Assembly: GCA_043800755.1 (NCBI GenBank)
Contig: JAZDMQ010000069.1
Coordinates: 1 to 29,553, forward strand
Direction: 5' to 3'
Source: a bacterium
Lineage (GTDB): Bacteria > Methylomirabilota > Methylomirabilia > CAVQYV01
Length of the DNA stretch: 29,553 bases
The position numbers and the translations under genes are program-made. The notes under the pieces are model-generated. The model made no database searches. It was not told the DNA's origin and worked only from the letters and a program-made list of their open reading frames with translations. Below, in pieces: positions 3,481 through 29,553 of the stretch (position 1 is its first letter; every line of letters begins with the position of its first letter).

Positions 3481-4056
3481 CTACTTGCCTAAGGAGCGGA
3501 TGTAGGACTGGAAGTGGAATTTGATCTCGGCGGGGGTCAGGGGGAAGTCGGGCATGGGAGTCCCCTCCGGCTCGATGCGGGCAGAGAGGAACGCGAGGCC
3601 CGGCTGCCTGAGGGCGAATTCGATGGCCGCTTCGAATTCCGCGGGCGTCTTGACCTCTTGGGCGTTGGCTATTCCGGCCCCCTTGGCCAGGGCCACGAAG
3701 TCGGTCTTCTCCACATTGACCAGGCACTGCCCGCCGGAGGACTCGTAGCACCGGTTGTTGAAGAGGAGGTGGATCAGGTTAGGCGGGCTCTTCTCGGCCA
3801 TGGTGACCAGGATGCCGAGGTTGAGCAGCAGGCCTCCGTCCCCATCCAGCACGATTACCTTCTTTTGCGGGAGGGCCAGGGCAATCCCCAATCCCACGGA
3901 GGAGGCCATGCCCATGGAGTCGTGGAGGTAGAAGTTGCCATCCCGAGGCTTGAGCTTCAGCCACCAGCCGGCCGCATAGCCCAGGTTGGTGACCACGATC
4001 TCGTCCCACACCTTCTCCGCCAATATCTCCAAGCACTCTTTTCTAAACATTGTCAC
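3481..4056 (-). CDS. TPP-dependent decarboxylase beta subunit (sulfopyruvate decarboxylase ComE / phosphonopyruvate decarboxylase-like)
   Basis: SMGMASSVGLG and the TPP motif GDGG...NN; GTGA overlap with the upstream alpha subunit. Confidence 0.8.
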   Translation of the reverse strand: MTMFRKECLEILAEKVWDEIVVTNLGYAAGWWLKLKPRDGNFYLHDSMGMASSVGLGIALALPQKKVIVLDGDGGLLLNLGILVTMAEKSPPNLIHLLFNNRCYESSGGQCLVNVEKTDFVALAKGAGIANAQEVKTPAEFEAAIEFALRQPGLAFLSARIEPEGTPMPDFPLTPAEIKFHFQSYIRSLGK

Positions 4057-4562
4057 GCCCCTAAGGCCTCCCGGCTCATCAGGATCGCCATCGGCCGCTG
4101 CGAGAACTGGGCTTGCCTCCAGACATCTGGGACGGCGGCCACCAACTCCTCGGGGGAGCTGACCAACTTATAGGTCAGGCCCAGCGCCTGGAGCAGGGGC
4201 TCGGTGTACATCCCCTTGTGCACATGAAAGGGCTTATCCTCGCCCCAGAGGCCGCGATAAGAGATGAGCAACAGGAAGGGGACCTCGTAGCGCAGCGGCA
4301 TGGAGGCGATGGTCCCGATGCAATTGAAGAACCCTGCATTCTGGATGATCATGGCCGAGGGGGTGCCGGCCAGGGAGGCGCCCACGCAGATCCCGATCCC
4401 CTCCTCCTCCCGGGCCAGGGGGACATGGATGACCTCCGGATCGGCCCGCAACAGGTCAATGATCTCGGTGGTCCAGATGTCCGGGAGGGTGCAGAAGAGC
4501 CGGAATCCTTGGGACTTCAGTTCGGAAAGCAGGCGCTGTGAGGGAGAGGGTCGACTTTCCAT
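4053..4562 (-). CDS. TPP-dependent decarboxylase alpha subunit (ComD-like)
   Basis: LPD, REEEGIGICVGASLAG, IQNAG and SYRG motifs of the TPP N-terminal (PYR) domain. Confidence 0.8.
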   Translation of the reverse strand: MESRPSPSQRLLSELKSQGFRLFCTLPDIWTTEIIDLLRADPEVIHVPLAREEEGIGICVGASLAGTPSAMIIQNAGFFNCIGTIASMPLRYEVPFLLLISYRGLWGEDKPFHVHKGMYTEPLLQALGLTYKLVSSPEELVAAVPDVWRQAQFSQRPMAILMSREALGA

Positions 4563-7893: not shown

Positions 7894-8877
7894 TTACAAA
7901 AGGGCGGGGACCAGGCCTGCCTTTTGGTACCCCTCGATCGTTTTGGCCAGCCCTATTCGGAAGCGGGTAAACTCCAATCCCAATTCCCGGGCCGCCTTGG
8001 AGTGATCGACGCAGATGCCGTGCAGCATGGCCCGGACCTGATCCCGGGGAAGCCGGGGAGACTGGCCGGTGAAGAGGGAGCGAAGATGACCTGCCCAGGA
8101 AGCGGCCCAGACCAGGGGGACGGGAATCCGGCCGGGGATCTTGGTCAGTCCAGCGATCTCCGCCGCGGCAGAGAAGGCCTGCTCCAGGGTGAGGTTCTCT
8201 CCGGCCAGGATATAGCGCTCTCCGGACCTTCCCTTCTCTGCCGCCAGGAGGTGCCCCTTTATCATATCCTCGATGAAAATCAGGTTGATGACGCCCCCGA
8301 ACAATCCCGGCAGCCGACCGCGCAGGAAATCGAGGAAGACCTTGCCTGAGCCCCGGGTACGGCCAGGCCCGTAGGCAGAGGTAGGGTTGACCACCACCAC
8401 CTCCAGGCCCCTGGCCACCATCGCCAGCGCCTCCTTCTCCCCCAGATATTTGGAGCGCTCATAATCGGAGAGGAAATAGCCACGGTGGGCCGTCTCTTCA
8501 TTCCCGATCTGCCCCCTCTTCTCGCCAATCGTCACCGCCGAACTGGTGTGCAGCACCCGCCTCACCCCAGCCCTTAGGGCCGCCTCCAGCAGGTGTCGCA
8601 CCCCCTCCACATTGATCGCATAATAATCCTTCCGTCGAGGGATCCAAAAGCTATTGATGCCGGCCAGATGATAACAGAGCTCGACCCCTTGGAGGGCCGA
8701 GGACAAGGAGGCGCTATCCCGCAAATCCCCAGGGAAGACCTCTACGCCGAGGCAGCGGAGCCCCGAGTCGTCCTCCCCCGGGAGCACCAGGGCCCGGACT
8801 TGCCCTTTCCCTTTCAAGAGCTCCGGCAGAAGATGGCTGCCCACATAGCCCGTTGCGCCAGTCACTAAGATCTTCAA
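7894..8877 (-). CDS. NAD-dependent epimerase/dehydratase, extended SDR (HpnA/dihydroflavonol reductase-like)
   Basis: TGATGYVG, HLAG, TSS, catalytic YERSK, and NPTSAYGP; TTG start. Confidence 0.88.
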   Translation of the reverse strand: MKILVTGATGYVGSHLLPELLKGKGQVRALVLPGEDDSGLRCLGVEVFPGDLRDSASLSSALQGVELCYHLAGINSFWIPRRKDYYAINVEGVRHLLEAALRAGVRRVLHTSSAVTIGEKRGQIGNEETAHRGYFLSDYERSKYLGEKEALAMVARGLEVVVVNPTSAYGPGRTRGSGKVFLDFLRGRLPGLFGGVINLIFIEDMIKGHLLAAEKGRSGERYILAGENLTLEQAFSAAAEIAGLTKIPGRIPVPLVWAASWAGHLRSLFTGQSPRLPRDQVRAMLHGICVDHSKAARELGLEFTRFRIGLAKTIEGYQKAGLVPALL

Positions 8878-18818: not shown

Positions 18819-20538
18819 ATGAGCTGGCGGAGCCGCGGACTTCTCGGAAATCTCGAATGCACCCTGATGCGGTTCCTCTACCGCTCCCTTGGCTACAGCG
18901 AGGAGGCGATGCGCGGCCCCCTCATTGGCATCGCCAATGCCTGGAATTCGATCAACCCGGGCCACTACAACCTGAAGGAAGTGGCGGAGGCCGCCCAGCG
19001 CGGGATCCTTCAGGCGGGAGGAATGCCCCTGGAATTCGGCACCATCGGCCCCTGCGACGGAATCGCCAGGGCCATGTGGGTATGCGCTATTTTTGCCTGC
19101 CCGCGACCTGATCGCCTCCGAGGTCGAGCTCATGGTCCAGGCCCATCAGCTGGATGGCGTGCTGCTCATTGGCTCCTGCGACAAGATCGTACCCGGGATG
19201 CTGATGGCGGCGGCCCGATTGGGTCTCCCTGCCATTCTGATCAACGGGGGACCGATGATGCCAGGGACGGTGCAAGGCCGCCACTGCGACTGCACGACAG
19301 TGGAGGTGGCTTACGCCCACTGGCGAAAACGCAAGATCTCTCGCCGCCAATTCGAGGAGATCGAGGAGGCGGCCTGTCCCACCCTGGGTTCCCGCGCCCA
19401 CATCGGAACCGCCAACACCATGGGCTGTGTGGCCGAGGCGTTCGGCCTTTCGCTCCCCGGAACGGCCCTGATACCGGCCTATATGGCTGCCCGTTTTCGG
19501 TCAGCAGAGGAGGCTGGCAGAAGGATCGTGGCCATAGTGAGGGAGGGTCTAACCACCAAGGAGATCCTGACGGCTGAGGCCCTCGAAAATGCCATCCGTC
19601 TGAGCCTGGCCATTGGGGGATCCACCAATTCTCTGCTCCACATCCCGGCGATCGCCCAGGAGGCAGGAGTCCAGATCGAAATGGAGGACTTTCGCCGCCT
19701 CTCGGAGGAAACCCCCCAACTGGCTTCCATCATGCCCGCCTCCGCTCACGATGTGGTCGACTTCTACGAGGCAGGAGGCGTTCCCTCTGTGCTCAAAGAG
19801 CTGAGCCCCCTCCTCCACCTGAATGCCGTAACGGTCACCGGCCGGAGCTGGAAGGAGAACCTGAGGGGAGTGAAGGGGGCAGACGGAAAGGTAATACGGC
19901 CCCTCCAGAGGCCCTTCTCTTCTACCGGAGGCCTCTCCATCCTCTATGAAAACCTGGCCCCCCATTCGGGTGTGGCCAAGCCGGCGGCCATTCCCCCGCA
20001 TATGATGAGATTTCGCGGTCAGGCCCGCATCTTCGATTTAGAGGAGGAAGCCTGCAAAGCTTTGATAGGGGGGAAGATCGGGGGAGGGGAGGTACTGGTC
20101 CTGCGCTACGAGGGACCCAAGGGAGGACCGGGAATGCGGGAGATGTTCCGGGCCTCCCAGCTCATCCGGGGCCTGGGCCTGGAGGAGAAGGTAGCCCTCA
20201 TCACGGACGGGCGGGTATCCGGCTCCAATCGTGGGCTCTTTGTGGGCCACATCTCTCCCGAGGCTATGGAGGGCGGTCCCCTGGCCATTGTGGAGGAGGG
20301 CGACCTGATCTCGATCGATATCCGGGCAGGACGGATCGACCTGGAGGTGCTGCCGGACGAAATCGATCATCGGCTGAAGGCGTGGAGACCTCCGCGGCCC
20401 AAAGTCACAAAGGGATATCTCGCCCTCTATGCCAAGCTGGCTGAGTCCGCCGCCCGCGGGGCGGTCTTGCGGGGAATCACGAATCCCACGCGGAAAGGGA
20501 GTCCAGACGGCAAGGGGATAGGGACGAAGAGGAGTTGA
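18819..20538 (+). pseudogene. ilvD: Dihydroxy-acid dehydratase (IlvD/Edd family), disrupted by two 1-nt deletions
   Basis: The N-terminus (IGIAN, PGH, CDGIA) is in the 18819 frame, GHVGMRY is in a second frame (~19069-19090), and LPARDLIA...CDK...TANT...GGSTN...[13 protein letters not shown]...GHISPEA is in the 19093 frame. Confidence 0.8.
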
Positions 20539-20568: not shown

Positions 20569-21402
20569 TCAGAACTCGGCGGGGAGGGAGAGGATCTGCT
20601 GGTAGGTGAAGACGGGTCCATCCTTGCAGACATAGATATTGCCGATGTTGCACCGCCCGCACTTTCCCAGCCCACACTTCATCTTCATCTCCAAGGTGGT
20701 GATCACCTGCTCCGGCAAAAAGCCGAGCTTGTCGGTTGCCTGCAGCACGAACTTGATCATGATGGGAGGGCCGCAGGTGATAAGTATTGCCTTTTCCGGC
20801 GAGGGGGAGATCTTTTCCAGGATGGCTGGCACAAAGCCGATATGTCCATCCCAGGTTTCATCCTCTCCACCTGGGTCCACGGTCCTAACCAATTTCACAT
20901 CGGAGCGGGACTCCCATTCTCTCAGCTCCGCCTTGTAGACCAGGTCCGCGATGCTCCTGGCCCCATAGAGGATCATGATCTCGGCAAAATCTCCCCGGGT
21001 GTCCAGGCAGTTCCAGATCAAAGATCGAAGCGGGGCCAGACCGATCCCCCCACCCACGAAGATGAGGTTTTTTCCCTTCATCTCCTCCAAAGGGAACCAG
21101 TTCCCATAAGGGCCTCGGAAGCCGAGGGTGTCCCCCACCTCTCGATCGTGAAGGGACTGGGTCACCTTGCCCACTCTCTTGAGGCTACACTCAATATACC
21201 CTTTGCGGGTGGGGGAGGAGGCAATGCAGAAGGTGGCCTCCCCCTCTCCGAATACCGAGAGCTGGCAGAATTGCCCCGCCTTGAAGGAGAAATTATGCGC
21301 CAGGGCCTCCTCTGAGAAGACCAGGCGGAAGGTCTTGATATCCGGGGTCTCCTCGATGATCTCCTCGGTCTTCACCAAATGTGGCTCATAAATGTGAGGC
21401 AT
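20569..21402 (-). CDS. flxA: FlxA-like FAD/NAD(P)-binding [2Fe-2S] subunit (AsrB/PyrK family)
   Basis: GQF, RGPYG, GGGIGLAP, CGPPIM, and CGLGKCGRC...CKDGPVF; last gene of the hdr-flx operon. Confidence 0.85.
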   Translation of the reverse strand: MPHIYEPHLVKTEEIIEETPDIKTFRLVFSEEALAHNFSFKAGQFCQLSVFGEGEATFCIASSPTRKGYIECSLKRVGKVTQSLHDREVGDTLGFRGPYGNWFPLEEMKGKNLIFVGGGIGLAPLRSLIWNCLDTRGDFAEIMILYGARSIADLVYKAELREWESRSDVKLVRTVDPGGEDETWDGHIGFVPAILEKISPSPEKAILITCGPPIMIKFVLQATDKLGFLPEQVITTLEMKMKCGLGKCGRCNIGNIYVCKDGPVFTYQQILSLPAEF

Positions 21403-21412
21403 GGTTCTCAGC

Positions 21413-22459
21413 TCAGCCCTTGGCGGACGCAGTTACCCTCTCCTTGATCTTGGCCAGAATCTCAGTAAGGTCAATGCCCACGGGGCAGACCTCAATACAA
21501 CGGCCACAGCCCACACAGGCGATGGGCCCAAAGCGGTCCACATAGTATTTGAATTTATGCATGATTCGTTGCCGGTAGCGACGGTCCTGGCTTCCTCGGG
21601 GCTGGTGGGCCGGCATCTGGGTAAAATGGCCAAAGGAGCAGGTATCCCAGATGCGGCGCCGGATTCCTCGCCAGAGGTTTCCCTCGTCCACGATATCGAA
21701 GCAGTGGCAGGTAGGGCACAGGTAATAGCAGGCTCCACATCCGATGCAGCGCCGGGAGATCTCCTCCCATAAGGGATCCTCAAAGTGCTCATCCAGCCAC
21801 TTCTTGATGCCTTCCATCTCCACCTGGCGCCTGATCTTTCCCCGGGCCTCCTTTTCCACCTCTGCTCGCCTCTTTTCATCATCCGGCCTAATCTCCTCCC
21901 AGAGATCCGAGAATTCTGCGAGCAATCGCTCGCCCTTCTCGCTGACGAACTCCGCGAATAGGCGCTTATCATCCAGGGGGGTCAGCGCGATATCACAGCC
22001 TTCCTTCCCCGTTGGGCTGTAGCCGAGGGAGGCGCAGAAGCAGGCCTCATCCGGCTCCTCACAGGCCAGGCAGATGACTAAGGTCTTCTCCCGCCGTGCC
22101 AGATAGAGCTCATCCTTCTCCTCCCAGGCGAAGACCTTATCGATAATGGGAAGGTAGGCGGCGTCGCAGGGCCTGACCCCATAAAGGACGGAGGGAATGG
22201 GATACTGGTCGAGGGGGTGGGTCTTTATCCCCTCTTTGCGGACCTCATAGGAGAGGAGAGGCTCATGGGGAGGAAGGAAAAACTCCTTGATGGAATGGGC
22301 AGAATTAGTATATTGCGGTGGAAGGTCCGAGGACGATTGGATCTCCCCGAAGAGGATGATGCCCTCGGATTCCCGGGGGCCATAGACCCGGAAGCCCTTC
22401 TCCCGCAGGCCCTGAATGAGTTTATCTCGGTTCTTAATGGAAAGGATCTTCTCTTTCAT
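21413..22459 (-). CDS. flxB: FlxB-like Fe-S subunit (AsrA family)
   Basis: GVRPCD, C...CFC, CIGCGAC...CPTCHCF, WDTC, HKF, and CVGCGRC...CP. Confidence 0.85.
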   Translation of the reverse strand: MKEKILSIKNRDKLIQGLREKGFRVYGPRESEGIILFGEIQSSSDLPPQYTNSAHSIKEFFLPPHEPLLSYEVRKEGIKTHPLDQYPIPSVLYGVRPCDAAYLPIIDKVFAWEEKDELYLARREKTLVICLACEEPDEACFCASLGYSPTGKEGCDIALTPLDDKRLFAEFVSEKGERLLAEFSDLWEEIRPDDEKRRAEVEKEARGKIRRQVEMEGIKKWLDEHFEDPLWEEISRRCIGCGACYYLCPTCHCFDIVDEGNLWRGIRRRIWDTCSFGHFTQMPAHQPRGSQDRRYRQRIMHKFKYYVDRFGPIACVGCGRCIEVCPVGIDLTEILAKIKERVTASAKG

Positions 22460-22462
22460 CTC

Positions 22463-23347
22463 TCAGCGAATGAAATCCTCATGATCTTTGGGATCAAAGG
22501 TGGCCAGCGCCGGCTCCATTTGGTAATTCATGCCGGCCACATACCCAAATTGCTCCTTGACTTCCCTGGCCATCTTCTGGTTCAGCAGCATGAGGGGAAT
22601 GTCCATGGGACAGGCCCTCTCGCACTCTCCGCAGCCGACGCACCTTCCGGTGAGATGAAAGGCTCGAATGATATTCCAAGCTAGGTTGCCACGAGCATGG
22701 GGGCTCTTCTCGATCCACTGGGGAATGGATTTCTCCGTGATGCACCGGTTGCAATAACAGAGGGGACAGGCCTGGCGGCAGGCATAGCACTTGATGCAGC
22801 GGGAGAGCTCCCCTTGCCAATACTCCCAACGCTCCTCCGGGGATCGGGATTCCAAATCCGCGATGACCTCATACGGGTCGGAAGAAGGCTCAGGCGAGTC
22901 TATCTTCTCTCCCACTAAGAAATCAAACTCCACCGGGGTATGGACCAGACAGACCTTGCATTTGGCCGACAGGGTCTCTTCATCAAGGTCTCCCTTTCCC
23001 TGATCCAGGGCCTTCTTGGAGAGGACGCCCCGACAGGCCAGTCCGATGATGTAGAGATCCTCCCTTCGGATCTGCTTCTCCTGGATGAGGACAAAGAGGG
23101 CCCGTGCATCGCAGCCCTTGGCAGTGATGGCCACTCGCCCCGGAACTTTCGTCTCCTTCCGCGTGAGGTAGACCGCCAGGTTGTTCACGCAAGCAGGGGT
23201 CCAGATGAGCTGAGAGGCCTCCTCCGGGGAGGTGATGAAGATGGGCCGGGCGCGGCTGCGCCTTGTACCCGCGCCATAACCGATGACCTGGGCCACCTCC
23301 TCCTTCTCCAACAACTCCTTCGCCTTATCCTGTAATTCCCTGCTCAT
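22463..23347 (-). CDS. flxC: FlxC-like Fe-S subunit
   Basis: KGCD, CIKCYACRQACPLCYC..C, and HLTGRCVGCGECERACP. Confidence 0.85.
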   Translation of the reverse strand: MSRELQDKAKELLEKEEVAQVIGYGAGTRRSRARPIFITSPEEASQLIWTPACVNNLAVYLTRKETKVPGRVAITAKGCDARALFVLIQEKQIRREDLYIIGLACRGVLSKKALDQGKGDLDEETLSAKCKVCLVHTPVEFDFLVGEKIDSPEPSSDPYEVIADLESRSPEERWEYWQGELSRCIKCYACRQACPLCYCNRCITEKSIPQWIEKSPHARGNLAWNIIRAFHLTGRCVGCGECERACPMDIPLMLLNQKMAREVKEQFGYVAGMNYQMEPALATFDPKDHEDFIR

Positions 23348-23368: not shown

Positions 23369-23857
23369 CTATCCATCGCTGATCTTGCGGTATCCCTCAA
23401 ATGGACCCATTTCCCGAACCTGGCGGGTCACCTCATTCACCATCTTTGCCCACTTTGCCCCTTCCGCGGCCGAGACCCAAGAGAACTGAACTCGACGCAG
23501 ATCGATCCCCAGAAACTCCAGGAGCTTGCGAAAGGTGGCGAATCGCCGCCGGGCATGATAATTCCCGCTGGTATAATGGCAATCCCCCGGATGACAACCG
23601 GAGACCAGTACCCCATCCGAGCCCCGCTCGAACGCCTTCAGGATGAAAAGGGGATCGATTCTCCCTGTACAAGGGAGTTTGATGACACGAATCTGAGGAC
23701 TATGTTTCAAACGGCTGGTCCCAGCCAGGTCTGCCCCCGCATAGGTGCACCAGTTGCAGACGAAGGCGGTGATCTTTGGCTCCCAGCCATTGCCTCCCTC
23801 TTTACTCCCTGCCCCGCGGGTCAGACCCATCTCCGTCTCTCTTTCTTTGCTCTCCAT
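23369..23857 (-). CDS. flxD: MvhD/FlxD [2Fe-2S] adaptor subunit
   Basis: FVCNWCTYAGADLAG, PCTGR, GCHPGDCHY..GN, and WVSAAEG. Confidence 0.92.
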   Translation of the reverse strand: MESKERETEMGLTRGAGSKEGGNGWEPKITAFVCNWCTYAGADLAGTSRLKHSPQIRVIKLPCTGRIDPLFILKAFERGSDGVLVSGCHPGDCHYTSGNYHARRRFATFRKLLEFLGIDLRRVQFSWVSAAEGAKWAKMVNEVTRQVREMGPFEGYRKISDG

Positions 23858-23930: not shown

Positions 23931-25715
23931 CTAAAGGGCATTGATCTCCGCATACACCTGCTCGTCCAGAAACCCTTGGAGATCTATGGAGTTGGACCGG
24001 CAAATTGCCGCGCAGACCCCACATCCCTGACAGACGCCCTGATTCACGGAAGCAACGGTACGGACCAGGTTTCCCATCCGATCCCGGATTTCCTTAACCT
24101 CTATCGCCCCGTAGGGGCAAACCATCTGGCAATAGAAGCAGCCGACGCAGGATTCCTCATCCACCGTGGCCACGATCGGCTCGCGGCTCAATTCCTCGGC
24201 GGAGAATAGGCCCAGCACCTTGGAGGCGGCCGCACCGCCCTGGGCTACTGCCTCAGGGATATCCTTGGGCGCCTGGCAGGCTCCGGCCAGGAAGATCCCG
24301 GCGGTGTTAGTCTCCACTGGCCTCAGCTTGGGATGGGCCTCGGAAAGGAACTTATATTGGTCATAGGAGACGCCCAGCTTCTGCGCCAGTTTCTCGATCC
24401 CGGGCTGGGCGGTCATGGCGGTGGCCAGTACCACCAGATCGGCATCGATCTCTACCGAGGTCCCGGAAATCGTATCGGCTCCCCGCACCACCAATTTTCC
24501 GTTACGCTCAAAGATGCGGGAGACCCGGCCCCTCAGGTAGATGGCTCCATCCTCCTCCACCGCGCGGCGCACGAATTCCTCATAATTCTTCCCGCCCGAC
24601 CGGATATCGATGTAGAAGACATAGGCCTGACCGTCATGGACCTTATGTTTGTAAAGCATGGTGTGTTTGGCGACATACATGCAGCAGATCTTGGAGCAAT
24701 AGGAAATACCCTTGGAGAGGTCTCGCGATCCAACACACTGAATGAAGACCACGCTCTCCGGCACCTTCCCGTCGGAGGGTCTCTTCACTTCCCCCTCTGT
24801 GGGCCCTGAAGCGGAAAGGAGCCGCTCGAATTGCAGTCCACTGATCACATCTGGATACTTGCCGTAACCATATTCGCCGTAGCATTCGTCGGAAAGTAGC
24901 TCATAGCCGGTAGCAACTACTACGGCACCCACATCCTCCTCAATAATCTCGTCTTGTTGCGAATAGTCTATGGCATTAGCTGGACACACATCCTGGCAGA
25001 TCTTGCAGGTTCCCTTCTTGAAGTGCATACAGTTGTTTCTGTCGATTACTGGCTTGTTTGGAGCAGCCTGGGGGAATGGGATATAAATGCAGGGCCGGGA
25101 GACAAGACCCACCTCAAACTCCGATGTAATAGGCCTGGCAGCATGTCTTGAAATATCCTCCAACTTTATTGCCCCCGTTGGGCAGACAACCACACAAGAC
25201 CCGCAGGTGGTACACACTTCTGAATACTGATCAAATGGGGTGGCGATATCCCTCTTATCCCCCCTCCCCTTGATGCCTATAGCTGAAATGCCCAGACCGT
25301 CCTGACAGATCCTCGTACAGAGGCCGCAGAGGATACATCTGTTATCCTCTCCCTTCCTTCTTCCCCTGAATCGGGTCTCCCCAATTCCATACTTACCTGC
25401 CACCTCCCTTATCTCAGGGGAGGCTGGCGCCTCAGCCAGGAGCAGTTCTAAAATGAGCCTCCTCGCTCTCATCACCTTCTCAGAGGCGGTGTTTACAATC
25501 ATCCTCTCCCAGGCGGGGTAGGTACAGGCAGTATAAAGCTTCGACTTCTTGCCCCAGATGATTTCTACCAAGCACAATCTGCATGCGCCATACGGAGGCA
25601 GGGACTTGTGGTGACACAGAGTCGGTATGTCTATCCCGTGCTCTTTCGCTATCTCCAGGACGGTTCTGGATTCGTCCGCCTCGTACTCCTTACCATCCAT
25701 TATGAATGTACCCAC
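23931..25715 (-). CDS. Fusion: NuoG/HydA-like N-terminal Fe-S region + C-terminal half of heterodisulfide reductase HdrA
   Basis: GTG start with RBS GGAGGAG. N-terminal IPTLC...GACRLC...AC, CILCGLCTRIC and CTTCGSCVVVCP. Then HdrA motifs SEFEVGL..IYIPFPQA, VATG, QFERLLSASGPT, CVGSR, YCSKICCMY..K, GIFLAGACQAPKDI and a C-terminal 2x[4Fe-4S]. Confidence 0.92.
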   Translation of the reverse strand: MGTFIMDGKEYEADESRTVLEIAKEHGIDIPTLCHHKSLPPYGACRLCLVEIIWGKKSKLYTACTYPAWERMIVNTASEKVMRARRLILELLLAEAPASPEIREVAGKYGIGETRFRGRRKGEDNRCILCGLCTRICQDGLGISAIGIKGRGDKRDIATPFDQYSEVCTTCGSCVVVCPTGAIKLEDISRHAARPITSEFEVGLVSRPCIYIPFPQAAPNKPVIDRNNCMHFKKGTCKICQDVCPANAIDYSQQDEIIEEDVGAVVVATGYELLSDECYGEYGYGKYPDVISGLQFERLLSASGPTEGEVKRPSDGKVPESVVFIQCVGSRDLSKGISYCSKICCMYVAKHTMLYKHKVHDGQAYVFYIDIRSGGKNYEEFVRRAVEEDGAIYLRGRVSRIFERNGKLVVRGADTISGTSVEIDADLVVLATAMTAQPGIEKLAQKLGVSYDQYKFLSEAHPKLRPVETNTAGIFLAGACQAPKDIPEAVAQGGAAASKVLGLFSAEELSREPIVATVDEESCVGCFYCQMVCPYGAIEVKEIRDRMGNLVRTVASVNQGVCQGCGVCAAICRSNSIDLQGFLDEQVYAEINAL

Positions 25716-25724
25716 TTCTCCTCC

Positions 25725-27602
25725 CTACTCCCGAATCACCGCGTCAAACCTGCAAAGCTCTCGACAGATCCCACATTTTATGCACTTATCTTCTATTATG
25801 GTGTGCACCTGCTTCCTCTCGCCTTCAATGACCCCCTGCGGGCACTTCTTGAGACAGAGCATGCACCCGGTGCACTTCTCTCCATCTATGTAGTAGCGCA
25901 CCAGCGCCTTGCAGACACCAGCCGGACATCTCTTTTCTTTGACATGGGCTTCATACTCTTCCCGGAAATACCTCAGGGTAGAGAGAACAGGATTGGGCGC
26001 AGATCCGCCTAGCTGACACAGGGAAGCCTCAGAAACCACCCAGCATAGCTCTTCCAGGATAGCCAGGTCTTCCTCCCTTCCTCTACCTTCAGTTATCTCA
26101 GACAGTAGGTTATACATCTGGACCAGACCCTCACGACAGGCTGTGCATTTGCCGCATGATTCGTTCTTGAGGAAACCGGTAAAGTACCGAGCAATATCCA
26201 CCATGCAGTTTTCCTCGTCCATGACGATCATGCCGCCGGAACCCATCATGGACCCGGCTTCGGTCAGCCGCTCATAGTCCACGGGCAGATCAATCAAAGA
26301 CTCCGGGACACATCCCCCTGAAGGTCCTCCCGTCTGAACTGCCTTGAACTTTTTACCATCCTTAATACCACCGCCGATGTCATATACAATCTCTTTGAGG
26401 GTTATCCCCATGGGAACCTCAACCAAGCCGGTGTTGTTCACCTTACCCACCAGAGAAAAGATCTTTGTTCCCTTGCTCTTCTCTGTCCCGATGCTCGCGT
26501 ACCAATCTGCTCCCTTATTGATTATGAGGGGGACATTCGCCCAGGTTTCGACATTGTTTAGGTTGGAGGGGGAATCCCACAGCCCCTTCTCCACAGTATG
26601 GATATGCTTTGCACGGGGTTCACCAGGCTTACCCTCTATCGATGCCATCAAGGCAGTAGATTCGCCGCAGACGAAGGCGCCCCCGCCCCTGGCCATTTGC
26701 ACCTCAAAATTGAGCCCGGTTCCCAATATGTTCTTACCCAACAATCCTCGTTCCTCTGCCTGCTCCAGCGCAATCCTGAAATGCTCTACTGCCAGAGGGT
26801 ACTCCTGTCTGACATAGATATAACCTTCCTCCGACCCTATTGCGAAGGCACCGATTATCATCCCTTCCAGCACTGAGTGAGGATTGCCCTCCAGGACACT
26901 CCTGTCCATGTAGGCACCCGGGTCACCCTCGTCTGCATTGCATATGATGAACTTCCGTTCCCCTTTGGCCCTGCGGCACGTCTCCCACTTCTTACCGGTG
27001 TGAAACCCACCTCCGCCTCTTCCCCTCAACCCGGATGCCTTAATAATCTCTATAACCTGCTCGGGCTCCATGCCCTGGAGAACCTTTGCCAGGGCACTAT
27101 ATCCCCCTATGGCAATGTAGTCGTCGATCTGCCTGGGCTCAATCTCTTTGTTGCTGCCAAAGATAAGCGGCATTTGCTTCTTATAGAATGGAAGCTCATC
27201 TTCGTAGGTAAGCTTAGAGCCGGTTGCAGGATCGATGTAGAGCAAGTCTTCGATCACCTTACCGCCCATGACAGATTCTTCAAATATGCGTGGAATATCC
27301 TTGGCCTTCACCCGCGGATAGAAGATGCGCTGGGGCCTGACGATCAGTAACGGCCCTTGCTCGCAAAAACCGAGGCAGCCGGTCACCCTCACGGCCACCT
27401 GAGAAGACATGTCCCTCTTCTCGATCTCGTTCCTCACTGCCTCCACTACCTCCTGAGACTTGTTTGCATAGAGGCAGGAGGTCCCACTACAAATCACCAC
27501 CGTAGGCCTATTGGAGTCCCGAGAGGAGAATAACGCCTCCTGAAACCCGAAGAATTGATCTATGCTCTCCAATCTCTTTCCGTTGGTACCCATGGCGATC
27601 AC
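25725..27602 (-). CDS. NuoF/HydB/BfuB-like FMN/NADH-binding Fe-S flavoprotein
   Basis: N-terminal thioredoxin-like [2Fe-2S] (CSGTSC...GCLGFC), GLRGRGGGGF, CNADEGDPGAYMDR, GAFVCGESTAL, NNVET, GGPSGG, ESCGKCTAC...C, H..EKRCPAGVC, and two C-terminal CxxCxxCxxxC motifs. Confidence 0.93.
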   Translation of the reverse strand: MIAMGTNGKRLESIDQFFGFQEALFSSRDSNRPTVVICSGTSCLYANKSQEVVEAVRNEIEKRDMSSQVAVRVTGCLGFCEQGPLLIVRPQRIFYPRVKAKDIPRIFEESVMGGKVIEDLLYIDPATGSKLTYEDELPFYKKQMPLIFGSNKEIEPRQIDDYIAIGGYSALAKVLQGMEPEQVIEIIKASGLRGRGGGGFHTGKKWETCRRAKGERKFIICNADEGDPGAYMDRSVLEGNPHSVLEGMIIGAFAIGSEEGYIYVRQEYPLAVEHFRIALEQAEERGLLGKNILGTGLNFEVQMARGGGAFVCGESTALMASIEGKPGEPRAKHIHTVEKGLWDSPSNLNNVETWANVPLIINKGADWYASIGTEKSKGTKIFSLVGKVNNTGLVEVPMGITLKEIVYDIGGGIKDGKKFKAVQTGGPSGGCVPESLIDLPVDYERLTEAGSMMGSGGMIVMDEENCMVDIARYFTGFLKNESCGKCTACREGLVQMYNLLSEITEGRGREEDLAILEELCWVVSEASLCQLGGSAPNPVLSTLRYFREEYEAHVKEKRCPAGVCKALVRYYIDGEKCTGCMLCLKKCPQGVIEGERKQVHTIIEDKCIKCGICRELCRFDAVIRE

Positions 27603-28867
27603 TTATAGTGCGCAATCAGGGATTCGACCTTGCTCGGTCTCATGGAGTGGTAGTCGTTATCGACCACTACCACCGGTCCAAGAGCACAGCAGCCGACGCA
27701 GTTTACCGTTTCGAGGCTGAACTTCGAGTCCGCTGTGGTCTGTCCCGCCTTGATGCCCAGAACCCTTTCTACCCCTTCCAGCACCTGGCCGGCACCCCGT
27801 GCGTGGCAGGCCGTCCCGACACAAACCTTGATGGTATGTTCCCCCCTCGGCTCCAGACTGAAGGCGGTATAGAAAGTGGCCACATGGTATACCTGAGGCA
27901 AGGGAACACCGAGCCTTTGAGAGATGTATTTCAGAATATTCTCCGGAAGATAGCGGTATTGCAGATTGACATCCTGCAGCACCTGGATCAGAGATGAGGG
28001 GTAAGCCCCGTAGCGTGAGAGGACCGATTCCACCGCCTGAACCTCCTCCGCTGTCAACTCCTCCTTTGCATCCGGAAGAAGACGGATCTCGGGCTGGTTC
28101 CTGATCAGGCAGGCGCTCATGCAGTCGCCGCAGCCCGTGCACTTGTCCAGGTCAACCGATCTCGCCTTCTTTCTGATCTTGGCCTTGAAGTTACCCACAA
28201 AGCCAGAGATCTCCTCGAGTTCGGAATAGGTATAGAGCTTGATGTTGGGATGCTGCCGCACTTCAACCATCTTCGGGGTCAAGATGCACTGGGAACAATC
28301 GAGGGTAGGAAAAGTCTCAGAGAGCTGAGCCATGTGCCCGCCAATGGAGGGTTCTTTCTCCACCAGGACAACCTCTTTCCCACCTCCAGCAATATCCAGG
28401 GCTGTCTGGATACCGGCCACACCTCCTCCAATGACCAGGCAACGTTGGGTAACCGGCACTCGGATATCATAGAGGGGGGTATTTCGCTTCGCCTTCTCCA
28501 CCATCAGGCGCACCAGATCGATGGCCTTCTCGGTAGCCTCCTCCCGTTCGGAATGCACCCAGGAACACTGTTCCCGGATATTTGACATCTCCAATAGATA
28601 TGGGTTGACCCCGGCTTCATTGGCCGCACGCCGGAAGGTTACCTCGTGCATGCGGGGGGAGCAGGCGGCCACCACGATCCCGGTCAGTTTCTTCTCCTGG
28701 ATCGCCTCCTTGATCATGGATTGGCCGGGATCGGAGCACATATATTTGTATTCCACGGAGTGAGCTACCCCGGGGATCTTGGCCGATTCTTCGGCCACCC
28801 TCTTCACATCCACAGTGGAGGCAATATTTGCACCGCACCAGCAAACAAAGACTCCAATTCTTGCCAT
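27599..28867 (-). CDS. Fusion: N-terminal half of HdrA + NuoE/HydC-like [2Fe-2S] domain
   Basis: HdrA motifs RIGVFVCWCG, MCS, ACSP, NIREQCSWVH, IGGGVAG, ETFPTLDCSQC and CTGCGDCMSAC; then NuoE motifs LIQVLQ, VATFYTAF, CVGTAC and VNCVGCCALGP. Confidence 0.92.
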   Translation of the reverse strand: MARIGVFVCWCGANIASTVDVKRVAEESAKIPGVAHSVEYKYMCSDPGQSMIKEAIQEKKLTGIVVAACSPRMHEVTFRRAANEAGVNPYLLEMSNIREQCSWVHSEREEATEKAIDLVRLMVEKAKRNTPLYDIRVPVTQRCLVIGGGVAGIQTALDIAGGGKEVVLVEKEPSIGGHMAQLSETFPTLDCSQCILTPKMVEVRQHPNIKLYTYSELEEISGFVGNFKAKIRKKARSVDLDKCTGCGDCMSACLIRNQPEIRLLPDAKEELTAEEVQAVESVLSRYGAYPSSLIQVLQDVNLQYRYLPENILKYISQRLGVPLPQVYHVATFYTAFSLEPRGEHTIKVCVGTACHARGAGQVLEGVERVLGIKAGQTTADSKFSLETVNCVGCCALGPVVVVDNDYHSMRPSKVESLIAHYK

Positions 28868-28886: not shown

Positions 28887-29553
28887 TCAGATCAAAGCTT
28901 TGGCTTTCAACAAAGGAATAGGATCAATGATATGCCGATTGAGCCCCAATTCACGGATTCCGGCCCCCAGGGCCAAACCCAAGATCTGCGTAAAATATAA
29001 GATAGGAAGGTTAAAACGGAGGCTGTAGGCCGCCTCTGTCTCCCTCTGCCGTAGATCGAGATTGGACTGGCACATAGGACAGGCCACCGCTACGCAGTCC
29101 GCTCCTCTCGCCTGTGCATCCGCCAGGATATCGCGGCAGAGGCGAAGGACGATCTCGGTTCGGGTCAGGGAAAGGCTCGCCCCGCAACATTCAATATTAT
29201 AAGGCCAATCAATGGTCTGGGCCCCTACCGCCGTCAATAGGTCATCCATGGAATGGGGCTGCTCCGGGTCATCGAATTGCATCACCTTGGGGGGTCGGAC
29301 CAGAAGGCACCCATAATAGGAGGCCACCTTGAGCCCCTCCATCTTCTTTGACACTTTGAGCCGGAGGCCCTCTACTCCCACATCCTCCAGGATGACCTCG
29401 AGGAGATGGCGGACCTTCACCTCCCCGCGATAGTCGATTTCCAAAAGCTGGTTAACCTGATTTCGAATCTCCTGATCTTCCGCCATTTCTTGATTTGCCG
29501 TCTTCAGGCGGTTATAGCAGGCGGCGCAACAGGTCAGGACCTGATCCCCGTTC
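28887..29553 (-). CDS. hdrB: Heterodisulfide reductase subunit B, 5' end outside the window
   Basis: The frame is open to the window edge (..VLTCCAACYNRLK..); CCG-domain motifs YYGC, ECCG, ACPMC and LYFTQ. The track start at 29486 is internal. Confidence 0.92.
   Translation of the reverse strand, partial: NGDQVLTCCAACYNRLKTANQEMAEDQEIRNQVNQLLEIDYRGEVKVRHLLEVILEDVGVEGLRLKVSKKMEGLKVASYYGCLLVRPPKVMQFDDPEQPHSMDDLLTAVGAQTIDWPYNIECCGASLSLTRTEIVLRLCRDILADAQARGADCVAVACPMCQSNLDLRQRETEAAYSLRFNLPILYFTQILGLALGAGIRELGLNRHIIDPIPLLKAKALI

Follow-up and report, generated by a model that had tools for sequence, protein, structure and literature searches.

What does an operon encode when its hdrA appears only as two halves, with the parts of another redox module set between them? 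The question is raised by contig JAZDMQ010000069.1 (assembly GCA_043800755.1) of a sediment bacterium of the Methylomirabilota, a stretch of 29553 nucleotides that was analysed at its full length and is called the window below; it is the entire contig C27 of a 2.43 Mb, 166-contig genome (G000), 100% complete by markers. Between positions 23931 and 28867 on its minus strand, at the hdrA position of an operon running into flxDCBA, three linked genes encode the proteins P1, P2 and P3. Many anaerobes obtain their low-potential ferredoxin by flavin-based electron bifurcation, and two modules of this kind, an HdrA and a Bfu-type flavoprotein core, seem to be interleaved here. The split-HdrA/Bfu design is real and widespread, and it is apparently unpublished.

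P1 (422 amino acids, 27599-28867) consists of the HdrA N-terminal half followed by a NuoE/HydC/BfuC-type [2Fe-2S] thioredoxin-like domain; P2 (625 amino acids, 25725-27602) is a NuoF/HydB/BfuB-type flavoprotein; and P3 (594 amino acids, 23931-25715) joins a NuoG/HydA/BfuA N-terminal iron-sulphur (FeS) domain to the HdrA C-terminal half. All three lie on the minus strand. P1 and P2 share a stop/start overlap, GTGA, at 27599-27602, and P2 and P3 are separated by TAG-ggaggagaa-GTG (25716-25724), which has a Shine-Dalgarno-like GGAGG inside. The initial annotation had proposed these three linked genes, this overlap and this gap with its ribosome-binding site, and a cassette of about 3 kb fused in frame to hdrA at both ends. 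Open reading frames, the sequence at the junctions, and profile and solved-structure alignments agree with it throughout, and domain mapping of the three proteins placed the HdrA halves and the NuoE, NuoF and NuoG units where it had put them.

The two halves fit together as one protein. Residues 3-258 of P1 (28094-28861) match positions 1-258 of the HdrA2 profile NF040770, and residues 193-593 of P3 (23937-25139) match positions 254-639. Against the solved HdrA 5ODC_A, P1 3-256 aligns to residues 5-259 and the HdrA part of P3 (about 192-592) corresponds to 260-647, as taken from an alignment of 168-592 with 246-647; the joined halves are therefore colinear with HdrA, as had been expected of them. 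The full succession of N-terminal domain, thioredoxin reductase-like FAD domain, and inserted and C-terminal ferredoxin domains is found in P1 and P3 jointly only, and neither chain reaches the curated whole-protein cut-off of NF040770 (1100 bits; P1 scores 380 and P3 426). The P1 half holds the N-terminal cluster domain, the start of the FAD Rossmann fold (GGGVAG), a CSQC and the first CxxCxxCxxxC motif (C243-C253). Homology to HdrA ends after CTGCGDCMSAC, with C253 as its last residue and 28109 as its last position, and restarts at ITSEFEVGL, near 25130; the alignment to 5ODC_A thus agrees with the breakpoint read earlier from the letters. Where canonical HdrA continues as ...SVDxxxCTGCGxCxxKCPx-KKIPSEFNxxL... 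across this site, the HdrA part of P1 terminates at ...CTGCGDCMSACLI and P3 restarts at RPITSEFEVGL. The cut falls within the inserted ferredoxin domain of HdrA, one or two residues past its first cluster motif, and therefore the FAD domain and this inserted domain each have to be rebuilt from both chains.

The cofactor ligands have been kept in both halves: the CxxC near the FAD, the cysteines of six [4Fe-4S] sites and the flavin lysine are all present. Among the aligned fusions, C191/C194 and C243, C246, C249 and C253 of P1 are invariant (23/23), as are the partner motif C229, C237, C240 and C244 of P3 and the further P3 residues C340-C345 (the CSKICCMY cluster motif), K350, C523-C533 and C562-C572 (24/24 in each case). 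K350 aligns with Lys409 of 5ODC_A, which we take to be the lysine at the flavin. P1 and P3 jointly carry all parts of a single HdrA. When P1(1-262) and P3, the only two chains entered, were modelled together, they gave an ipSAE score of 0.85 (best of three controls, 0.00), with at least 98% contact agreement between runs and a partner pLDDT of at least 91; 58 of 80 solved complexes attained the mark used, as did 2 of 110 mismatched pairs. The modelled interface includes P3 166-177, the last NuoG-N cluster motif, together with P3 193-271 and P1 242-262. Since a whole HdrA has already been solved, this model is to be taken as a likeness to known HdrA and not as evidence of binding.

What stands between the halves resembles the bifurcating Bfu enzymes. 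In P1 the NuoE-type domain covers residues of about 270-422 (27602-28060; PF01257, residues 280-422, E 3.1e-46), its best solved matches being HydC 8A6T_C (E 3.6e-41) and NiFe-Bfu 7T2R_C and 7P5H_C; C349, C354, C390 and C394 are invariant among the aligned fusions. The thioredoxin-like [2Fe-2S] subunit BfuC is thus represented, though as a C-terminal domain of P1 and not as a free-standing protein. P2 has an N-terminal [2Fe-2S] domain, an FMN/NADH site, an N3-type cluster and a C-terminal 2x[4Fe-4S] domain (Pfam domains at residues 24-109, 187-358, 469-553 and 570-623). Its residues 32-622 align with NiFe-Bfu 7T2R_B (E 9.5e-232), and it aligns at full length with 9MQX_B, 8A6T_B, 7Q4V_B, 9N5U_B, 9BOV_B, 7P5H_B and 8OH5_B; every cysteine visible in the printed alignments to these eight HydB/BfuB-type chains is kept. 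Complex I NuoF aligns to P2 residues 145-558 only. Residues 3-190 of P3 (25146-25709; PF13510, Fer4_Nqo3 and HoxU NF005745) correspond to the part of BfuA that feeds the core, with one [2Fe-2S] site (C34, C45, C48, C64) and a 2x[4Fe-4S] ferredoxin domain (C127-C137, C168-C178), all 12 cysteines being invariant in 24/24 sequences. The His-ligated cluster motif of HydA/NuoG is absent, with no histidine or cysteine within P3 residues 65-126. The best solved match of this part is 9MQX_A (residues 8-187, of a chain of 247), with no difference in length, and P3 5-190 corresponds to residues 7-212 of HydA1 8A6T_A. We assign the inserted module to the Bfu/HydCBA type, and predict it to be bifurcating, because P2 keeps the FeS domains of bifurcating HydB/BfuB that complex I NuoF does not have.

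The same domains bear on a simpler view of the module, in which it does not bifurcate and serves only to reduce NAD+ (or to oxidise NADH), as an outlet taking the place of free ferredoxin at the low-potential arm of HdrA. An outlet of this type has been suggested for 'type III' HdrA, whose GltD/NfnB-like insert uses the same site, according to the passages of PMC12054007 and PMC9012536 that deal with it. Two of the loci collected here, L064 (913-2418) and L183 (5940-7445), have such an NAD(P)H module, a 502-residue in-frame Fer4_20 + Pyr_redox_2 insert, at the site of the Bfu cassette, and in the HdrA-N tree described below they sit near split forms, L183 paired with one of them and L064 beside a group of seven split and one canonical sequences. 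Against such an outlet, P2 retains the N-terminal [2Fe-2S] and C-terminal 2x[4Fe-4S] domains, over which it aligns with all solved bifurcating HydB/BfuB chains; the relevant section of Schut et al. (PMC9304861) gives these extra domains as what distinguishes bifurcating BfuB from non-bifurcating homologues, which lack them. With NADH entering at FlxA as well, a plain outlet would also run a futile cycle unless FlxA were NADPH-specific. We consider it quite unlikely that the module is no more than an outlet.

Could the whole arrangement have come from misassembly, or be an hdrA pseudogene in decay, broken up by an operon that has nothing to do with it? The assembly is of the metagenome type, in 166 contigs of which the window is one, and the guanine-plus-cytosine (GC) content of the operon (0.52-0.58) lies under that of the contig remainder (0.56-0.63, apart from one bin at 0.52), so there was some reason to ask. 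The 4.9-kb stretch is, against this, found elsewhere: at least half of its sampled words are present in 18 runs of 16 studies, which are sediment and soil metagenomes with one RNA library among them. The P2/P3 junction is bridged by contigs of other runs (X2 record 5, X3 record 18, X7 record 30 and X20 record 14), and so is the P1/P2 junction (X3 record 24, X7 record 32 and X20 record 16); X3 is DNA, and X7 and X20 are RNA libraries from two studies. In X2, no contig bridges the P1/P2 junction with 31 letters on each side. The junction-bridging records also cover both in-frame fusion points, which answers the concern about misassembly that the initial annotation had raised. Together with homologues of each fusion protein in many taxa, the invariant ligands and a matching gene order in two further phyla, detailed below, this leaves virtually no room for an artefact or a pseudogene, a reading that we regard as refuted by the homologues, the bridging contigs and the shared gene order. 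Two joints in X3 (24698>28128 and 24703>28263, with sides of 20 and 28 letters) were treated as conserved-motif cross-matches from other organisms, and a high depth at 25936-26539 was rejected as a copy-number signal because this conserved NuoF stretch is common to other organisms.

Recurrence of the same fusions and breakpoint in other genomes had been suggested as a check, and they do recur in many taxa. P1 has at least 120 homologues, and among the matches listed all have PF01257 together with an FAD family, i.e. the same fusion, at 50-100% identity and with a query coverage of 96-100% in all but one fragment (80%). The junction-spanning residues 1-330 of P3 likewise have at least 120 homologues, at 78-100% coverage and 50-100% identity. 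Both sets were drawn from at least 7999 candidates that include ordinary HdrA, and the figures are therefore not counts of the fusion. Their source names include candidate division NC10 (80% identity), KSB1, Methanomassiliicoccales, Thermoplasmata, Brocadiae, Chloroflexota, Dehalococcoidia, Cloacimonadota, Planctomycetota, Desulfobacteraceae and, for the P3 fusion, [Eubacterium] cellulosolvens. Current annotations describe these proteins only as 'NAD(P)H-dependent oxidoreductase subunit E' and '4Fe-4S binding protein'.

To place the split form among its relatives, the domain pieces of the window were mapped by tblastn on 193 loci, of which 175 have a full HdrA-N match and could be classified. 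The HdrA-C piece follows HdrA-N directly on the same strand in 161/175, which is far more than chance would give and upholds the view that these segments are contiguous in canonical HdrA; in the rows inspected the halves lie in one frame, 0-6 codons apart. Identity of canonical HdrA to the window is 60-73% for HdrA-N in most loci and 48-69% for HdrA-C. Most of these loci are hdrB-hdrA-flxDCBA operons, from Bacteroidota, relatives of Geobacter, Chlorobiaceae, Planctomycetota, Acidobacteriota, Clostridia, Bathyarchaeia and others. The NuoE-fusion split is present in 8/175 loci (the window, L005, L006 and L114-L118), the GltD/NfnB-like insert in 2/175 and large tandem HdrA-like genes in 2/175, and a further 2/175 are cut by contig ends, one of which, L050, extends into NuoE. 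Across two collection scans the split occurs in 7/160 loci among the matches listed, and L050 would be an eighth. In metagenome-assembled genomes (MAGs) of the Planctomycetota (L005) and the Thermoplasmata (L006) the order is [HdrA-N+NuoE]-NuoF-[NuoG-N+HdrA-C]-flxD-C-B-A in both; L005 has hdrB upstream, and the contig of L006 starts too close by for this to be seen. In L118, hdrB likewise lies upstream, and the locus also has mvhD followed by a putative [NiFe]-hydrogenase small-subunit gene (MvhG-like, by eye), so that the operon context is Flx in the window, L005 and L006 and Mvh-like in L118. A Bryobacterales MAG (L052, 14225-16937) has unfused nuoE-, nuoF- and nuoG(N)-like genes directly behind a canonical hdrB-hdrA-flxDCBA; this arrangement could be a precursor of the split form or an alternative to it.

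How did the split form come about? Over 251 genomes of its own phylum, a search with P1 found the full-length fusion only in G000, and the same-family genome G001 is without it; this lone occurrence and the lower GC content of the operon hint at horizontal acquisition. Elsewhere in the phylum, genome G022 (contig C130, 8157-8990; locus L097) has a 415-residue frame that matches P1 residues 143-419 only, with the start of the FAD domain, a ferredoxin motif and NuoE but no HdrA N-terminal domain, a different kind of HdrA-NuoE fusion. In a FastTree analysis of HdrA-N with 143 rows (9 split loci, 42/117 P1 homologues and 88/161 canonical loci after thinning, 2 GltD-insert loci and 2 outgroups), split and canonical forms are intermingled. 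The analysis was repeated in IQ-TREE with 76 rows (30 split, 44 canonical and 2 outgroups, L098 being removed for its long branch), and the starred branches of that tree require at least five changes of split state. A single split clade, defined by architecture although the FastTree result had been seen beforehand, was rejected by the approximately unbiased (AU) test (delta lnL 222, p 6.8e-9). Split HdrA-N sequences are not one clade. In the FastTree analysis, L118 groups with canonical HdrAs of the window's phylum with a support of 99*.

The tree of the NuoE domain (36 rows, 155 columns) is compatible with a single origin of the cassette itself and with several. In that tree the window groups with P0008 and P0044 at 97*, whilst their HdrA-N parts fall in other starred clades. 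Identity to the window in HdrA-N and in the NuoE domain is weakly correlated over 117 proteins (r 0.30). P0044 is 55% identical in HdrA-N and 69% in NuoE, and P0113 69% and 43%, respectively; the unequal domain identities of P0044, P0008 and P0113 fit mosaic histories. Taken together, the trees suggest that the cassette was installed more than once at one site or exchanged there by recombination, or else that reversions took place. A bolder proposal is that HdrA offers its inserted ferredoxin domain as a plug-in socket, into which the cassette was installed or exchanged at the same residue in several separate hdrA lineages and operon types, and that the Flx form is a two-flavin enzyme class with 2:1 coupling. 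We advance this tentatively and think it somewhat doubtful as a whole. If it were true, the Flx version would be a class of enzyme not yet described, in which two bifurcating flavins stand in series and pyridine nucleotides bind at two sites.

The function of the split HdrA has to be considered within its operon. Upstream of P1 lies the 3′ part of hdrB (28887-29552, minus strand, 221 codons; TIGR03288 HdrB, E 2.6e-50, with a CCG domain), which is truncated by the contig end. Another contig of the genome, C138 (positions 3-925, locus L194), carries hdrC (189 amino acids) and then the first 119 codons of hdrB, and its last 46 residues are the first residues of the window's open hdrB frame, an overlap of at least 46 codons. 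Since the end of C138 repeats that frame, the two contigs belong together and the operon therefore reads hdrC-hdrB-P1-P2-P3-flxDCBA. HdrB and HdrC are separate, canonical-type genes, and both HdrB CCG domains are present when the window and C138 are combined. Downstream of P3, again on the minus strand, follow flxD (23369-23857), an MvhD-type [2Fe-2S] adaptor (PF02662 FlpD, E 1.4e-52); flxC (22463-23347), an FeS protein recognised by Fer4 families and by synteny with flxC of canonical operons; flxB (21413-22459), a sulfhydrogenase beta/AsrA-like FeS protein (Fer4_22 and ShyB/HydB/AsrA profiles); and flxA (20569-21402), a sulfhydrogenase gamma/AsrB-like protein binding FAD, NAD(P)H and [2Fe-2S] (NAD_binding_1, FAD_binding_6, DHODB_Fe-S_bind; NF006220, E 2.3e-76). 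The FlxABCD-HdrABC gene cluster is thus complete, including a FlxD of the MvhD type and a FlxA that binds NAD(P)H.

We propose that this operon encodes one soluble Flx-Hdr-Bfu complex with two bifurcating flavin sites in series, a prediction to which we assign a probability of roughly 0.6. FlxA would oxidise NAD(P)H, and electrons would pass via FlxBC and FlxD to the FAD of HdrA, as proposed for canonical Flx-Hdr. There they would be bifurcated, the high-potential electron going to HdrC/HdrB and the disulfide, and the low-potential electron leaving through the inserted ferredoxin domain without reducing free ferredoxin at that point. The latter would move on to the fused NuoG-N clusters and to the NuoF/NuoE core, which would share electrons between NAD+ and ferredoxin as enzymes of the HydABC type do. 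The net reaction would be 3 NADH + 2 disulfide + Fd(ox) -> 3 NAD+ + 4 thiol + Fd(red, 2 e-), so that each ferredoxin would go with two disulfides and not with one; in the cell the reaction may run the other way. If the potentials given in the relevant part of PMC9304861 are used (NADH -280, Fd -500 and CoM-S-S-CoB -140 mV), coupling at 1:1 comes out uphill by about 160 mV-electron equivalents and at 2:1 downhill by about 120.

The order of the two sites in this scheme depends on where the module is attached. Because the cut falls inside the inserted ferredoxin domain, the module is attached at the low-potential exit of HdrA and not at its input as BamGHI is in the Bam system; that this domain is the exit of the bifurcating FAD in solved Hdr and BamE is stated in portions of 10.64898/2026.04.10.717634 and PMC9012536. 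The series arrangement is favoured because flxD-flxABC takes the input side and the Bfu units flank the exit domain. For two bifurcation modules in one complex there is a precedent in class II benzoyl-CoA reductase (BCRII), according to passages of 10.64898/2026.04.10.717634. That same precedent supports the opposite wiring, in which the Bfu module is the electron input, confurcating NADH and reduced ferredoxin and passing mid-potential electrons into HdrA, whilst FlxABCD serves as output (NAD(P)+ reduction) or as a second, alternative input. BCRII works in this way, with BamGHI as input, according to those parts of 10.64898/2026.04.10.717634; the same was proposed for Bam-Bfu in the corresponding section of Schut et al. 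(PMC9304861), and Bfu enzymes are reversible. The difficulty is that in the split form the module is covalently joined on both sides of the inserted ferredoxin domain, the exit in solved Hdr and BamE, whereas the input side, formed by the C-terminal ferredoxin domain and an MvhD-type adaptor, is already served by flxD-flxABC. Entry at the low-potential arm would also need HdrA to be confurcating and to oxidise thiols. We therefore hold both the reversed role of the module and the output or second-input role of FlxABCD to be improbable, if less so than a module that does not bifurcate at all.

Several points count against a Flx-Hdr-Bfu complex with its flavins in series. The analogy with BCRII, the one enzyme solved so far that combines Hdr and Bfu, does not yield the proposed wiring, since Bfu feeds the input side of HdrA there. 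It also looks wasteful for one complex both to oxidise and to reduce NAD(H), unless NADPH is the substrate of FlxA or the argument from stoichiometry is right. DsrC was not found by a TIGR03342 profile search of the genome, which is complete by markers. Finally, the bridging contigs from the RNA libraries X7 and X20 do not prove transcription.

If the proposed mechanism is true, the disulfide:ferredoxin ratio would shift from 1:1 to 2:1, and ferredoxin could still be reduced by NADH when the disulfide is a weak oxidant or the NADH/NAD+ ratio is low. The locus would then be a concrete, testable case of gear-shifting in electron bifurcation, and the meaning of Hdr/Flx genes in metagenome-derived metabolic models would change. 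New in any case are the Flx (NAD(P)H) context, the observation on clades above and the finding that the GltD/NfnB-like insert, itself known, shares the site of the cassette. A possible experimental route is offered by [Eubacterium] cellulosolvens, a named carrier of the P3 fusion and the one cultured-type organism named among the P3 matches listed, if a cultured strain has the operon.

Some other features of the genome may be recorded. Downstream of flxA and convergent with it lies ilvD (dihydroxy-acid dehydratase; 18819-20538, plus strand), which is spread over two frames: only the first ~84 residues of the open reading frame 18819-19577 match the profile (positions 7-86), and 19093-20538 corresponds to positions 96-556. 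The change of frame is a frameshift or an assembly error near 19075-19095. Elsewhere in the window, a gene pair at 3481-4562 (minus strand) resembles the beta and alpha subunits of sulfopyruvate/phosphonopyruvate decarboxylase, with scores under the curated cut-offs, and an HpnA-like hopanoid-associated epimerase is found at 7894-8877. G000 also holds a second HdrA-like open frame of 1223 residues beside hdrB- and hdrC-like matches, and two more NuoE+NuoF (Bfu-type) pairs, one within an open frame of 1042 residues; these further HdrA-like and Bfu-type loci are at C93:16883-17653, C53:13291-15647 and C67:15781-17984.

How does the split form compare with known systems? FlxABCD-HdrABC (hdrCBA-flxDCBA) reportedly occurs in Desulfovibrio vulgaris and many anaerobes, Ramos and colleagues being said to have described it in 2015. 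The window shares with the canonical form the operon frame hdrC-hdrB-hdrA-flxD-C-B-A and the second ferredoxin motif, Cx7CxxCxxxC. It differs in that HdrA is not contiguous and its inserted ferredoxin domain is not free: hdrA is cut after the first motif of that domain, and three Bfu-type units are inserted, fused to it and flanking the cut. The predicted complex would thereby gain another flavin (FMN), another NAD(H) site and some eight FeS clusters, and free ferredoxin probably no longer docks at HdrA. MvhAGD-HdrABC of methanogens (PDB 5ODC, 8RVU) provided the structural template with which P1 and P3 are colinear; HdrA is one polypeptide there and two here, and the operon of the window is without a hydrogenase.

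A pyridine-nucleotide module in the same HdrA domain is shared with the HdrAs that carry a GltD/NfnB-like insert, known as 'type III' HdrA in the pertinent passages of PMC12054007; in ANME-1 an NfnB-like domain interrupts the inserted ferredoxin domain, as the legend of S8 Fig in PMC9012536 records. That insert is a single in-frame, non-Bfu domain within one polypeptide, whereas here there are three units with gene boundaries and HdrA consists of two proteins. Within the BfuABC family (HydABC, NiFe-HydABCSL 7T2R, NfnABC 9N5U, 9MQX, Stn), P2, the NuoE domain of P1 and the NuoG-N part of P3 match BfuB, BfuC and BfuA at full length. HdrA-C follows NuoG-N in P3, where HydA has its H-cluster domain, and so stands at the position of the catalytic domain of type 1 BfuA subunits, as the initial annotation had suspected. 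Section 5 and Table 1 of PMC9304861 name the Rub, Nuo, Nfn, F420, NiFe/Mbh, FeFe, Fdh, Por, Codh, Wor and Bam types; among these, its supplementary tables aside, only Bam has HdrA, as a separate gene, and none has HdrA fused to BfuA and BfuC. In the split form the 'third substrate' module is itself a predicted bifurcating flavoprotein, and BfuC bears half of it as well. Operons of nuoEFG-mvhD-hdrA are listed for Desulfotignum in PMC4046663, and no split is noted in that part of the paper. Full-text literature searches gave no description of a split HdrA with fused NuoE, NuoF and NuoG, in line with the earlier impression that the architecture is uncharacterised; this covers main texts, and the supplementary clade tables of PMC9304861 may list these BfuB proteins.

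The closest counterpart is class II benzoyl-CoA reductase, Bam[(BC)2DEFGHI]2 or 'Bam-Bfu', the sole characterised complex of HdrA-type and HydBC/Bfu-type modules in the consulted parts of 10.64898/2026.04.10.717634 and PMC9304861. Both sources bear out that its HdrA-like and NuoEFG-like subunits are separate genes. [quoted passage not shown] The operon does not encode such a reductase, with its tungsten BamBC, tandem-HdrA BamE and HdrD-like BamD: no aldehyde-oxidoreductase-type (BamBC-like) gene is present in it, and its HdrB and HdrC are separate genes of the canonical type. Instead, Bfu is fused at the inserted ferredoxin domain, HdrBC is kept with both CCG domains, and Flx stands at the input. 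The split form would accordingly be a second and far more widespread way to couple HdrA-type and HydBC-type modules, with a different wiring in which Bfu sits at the low-potential exit.

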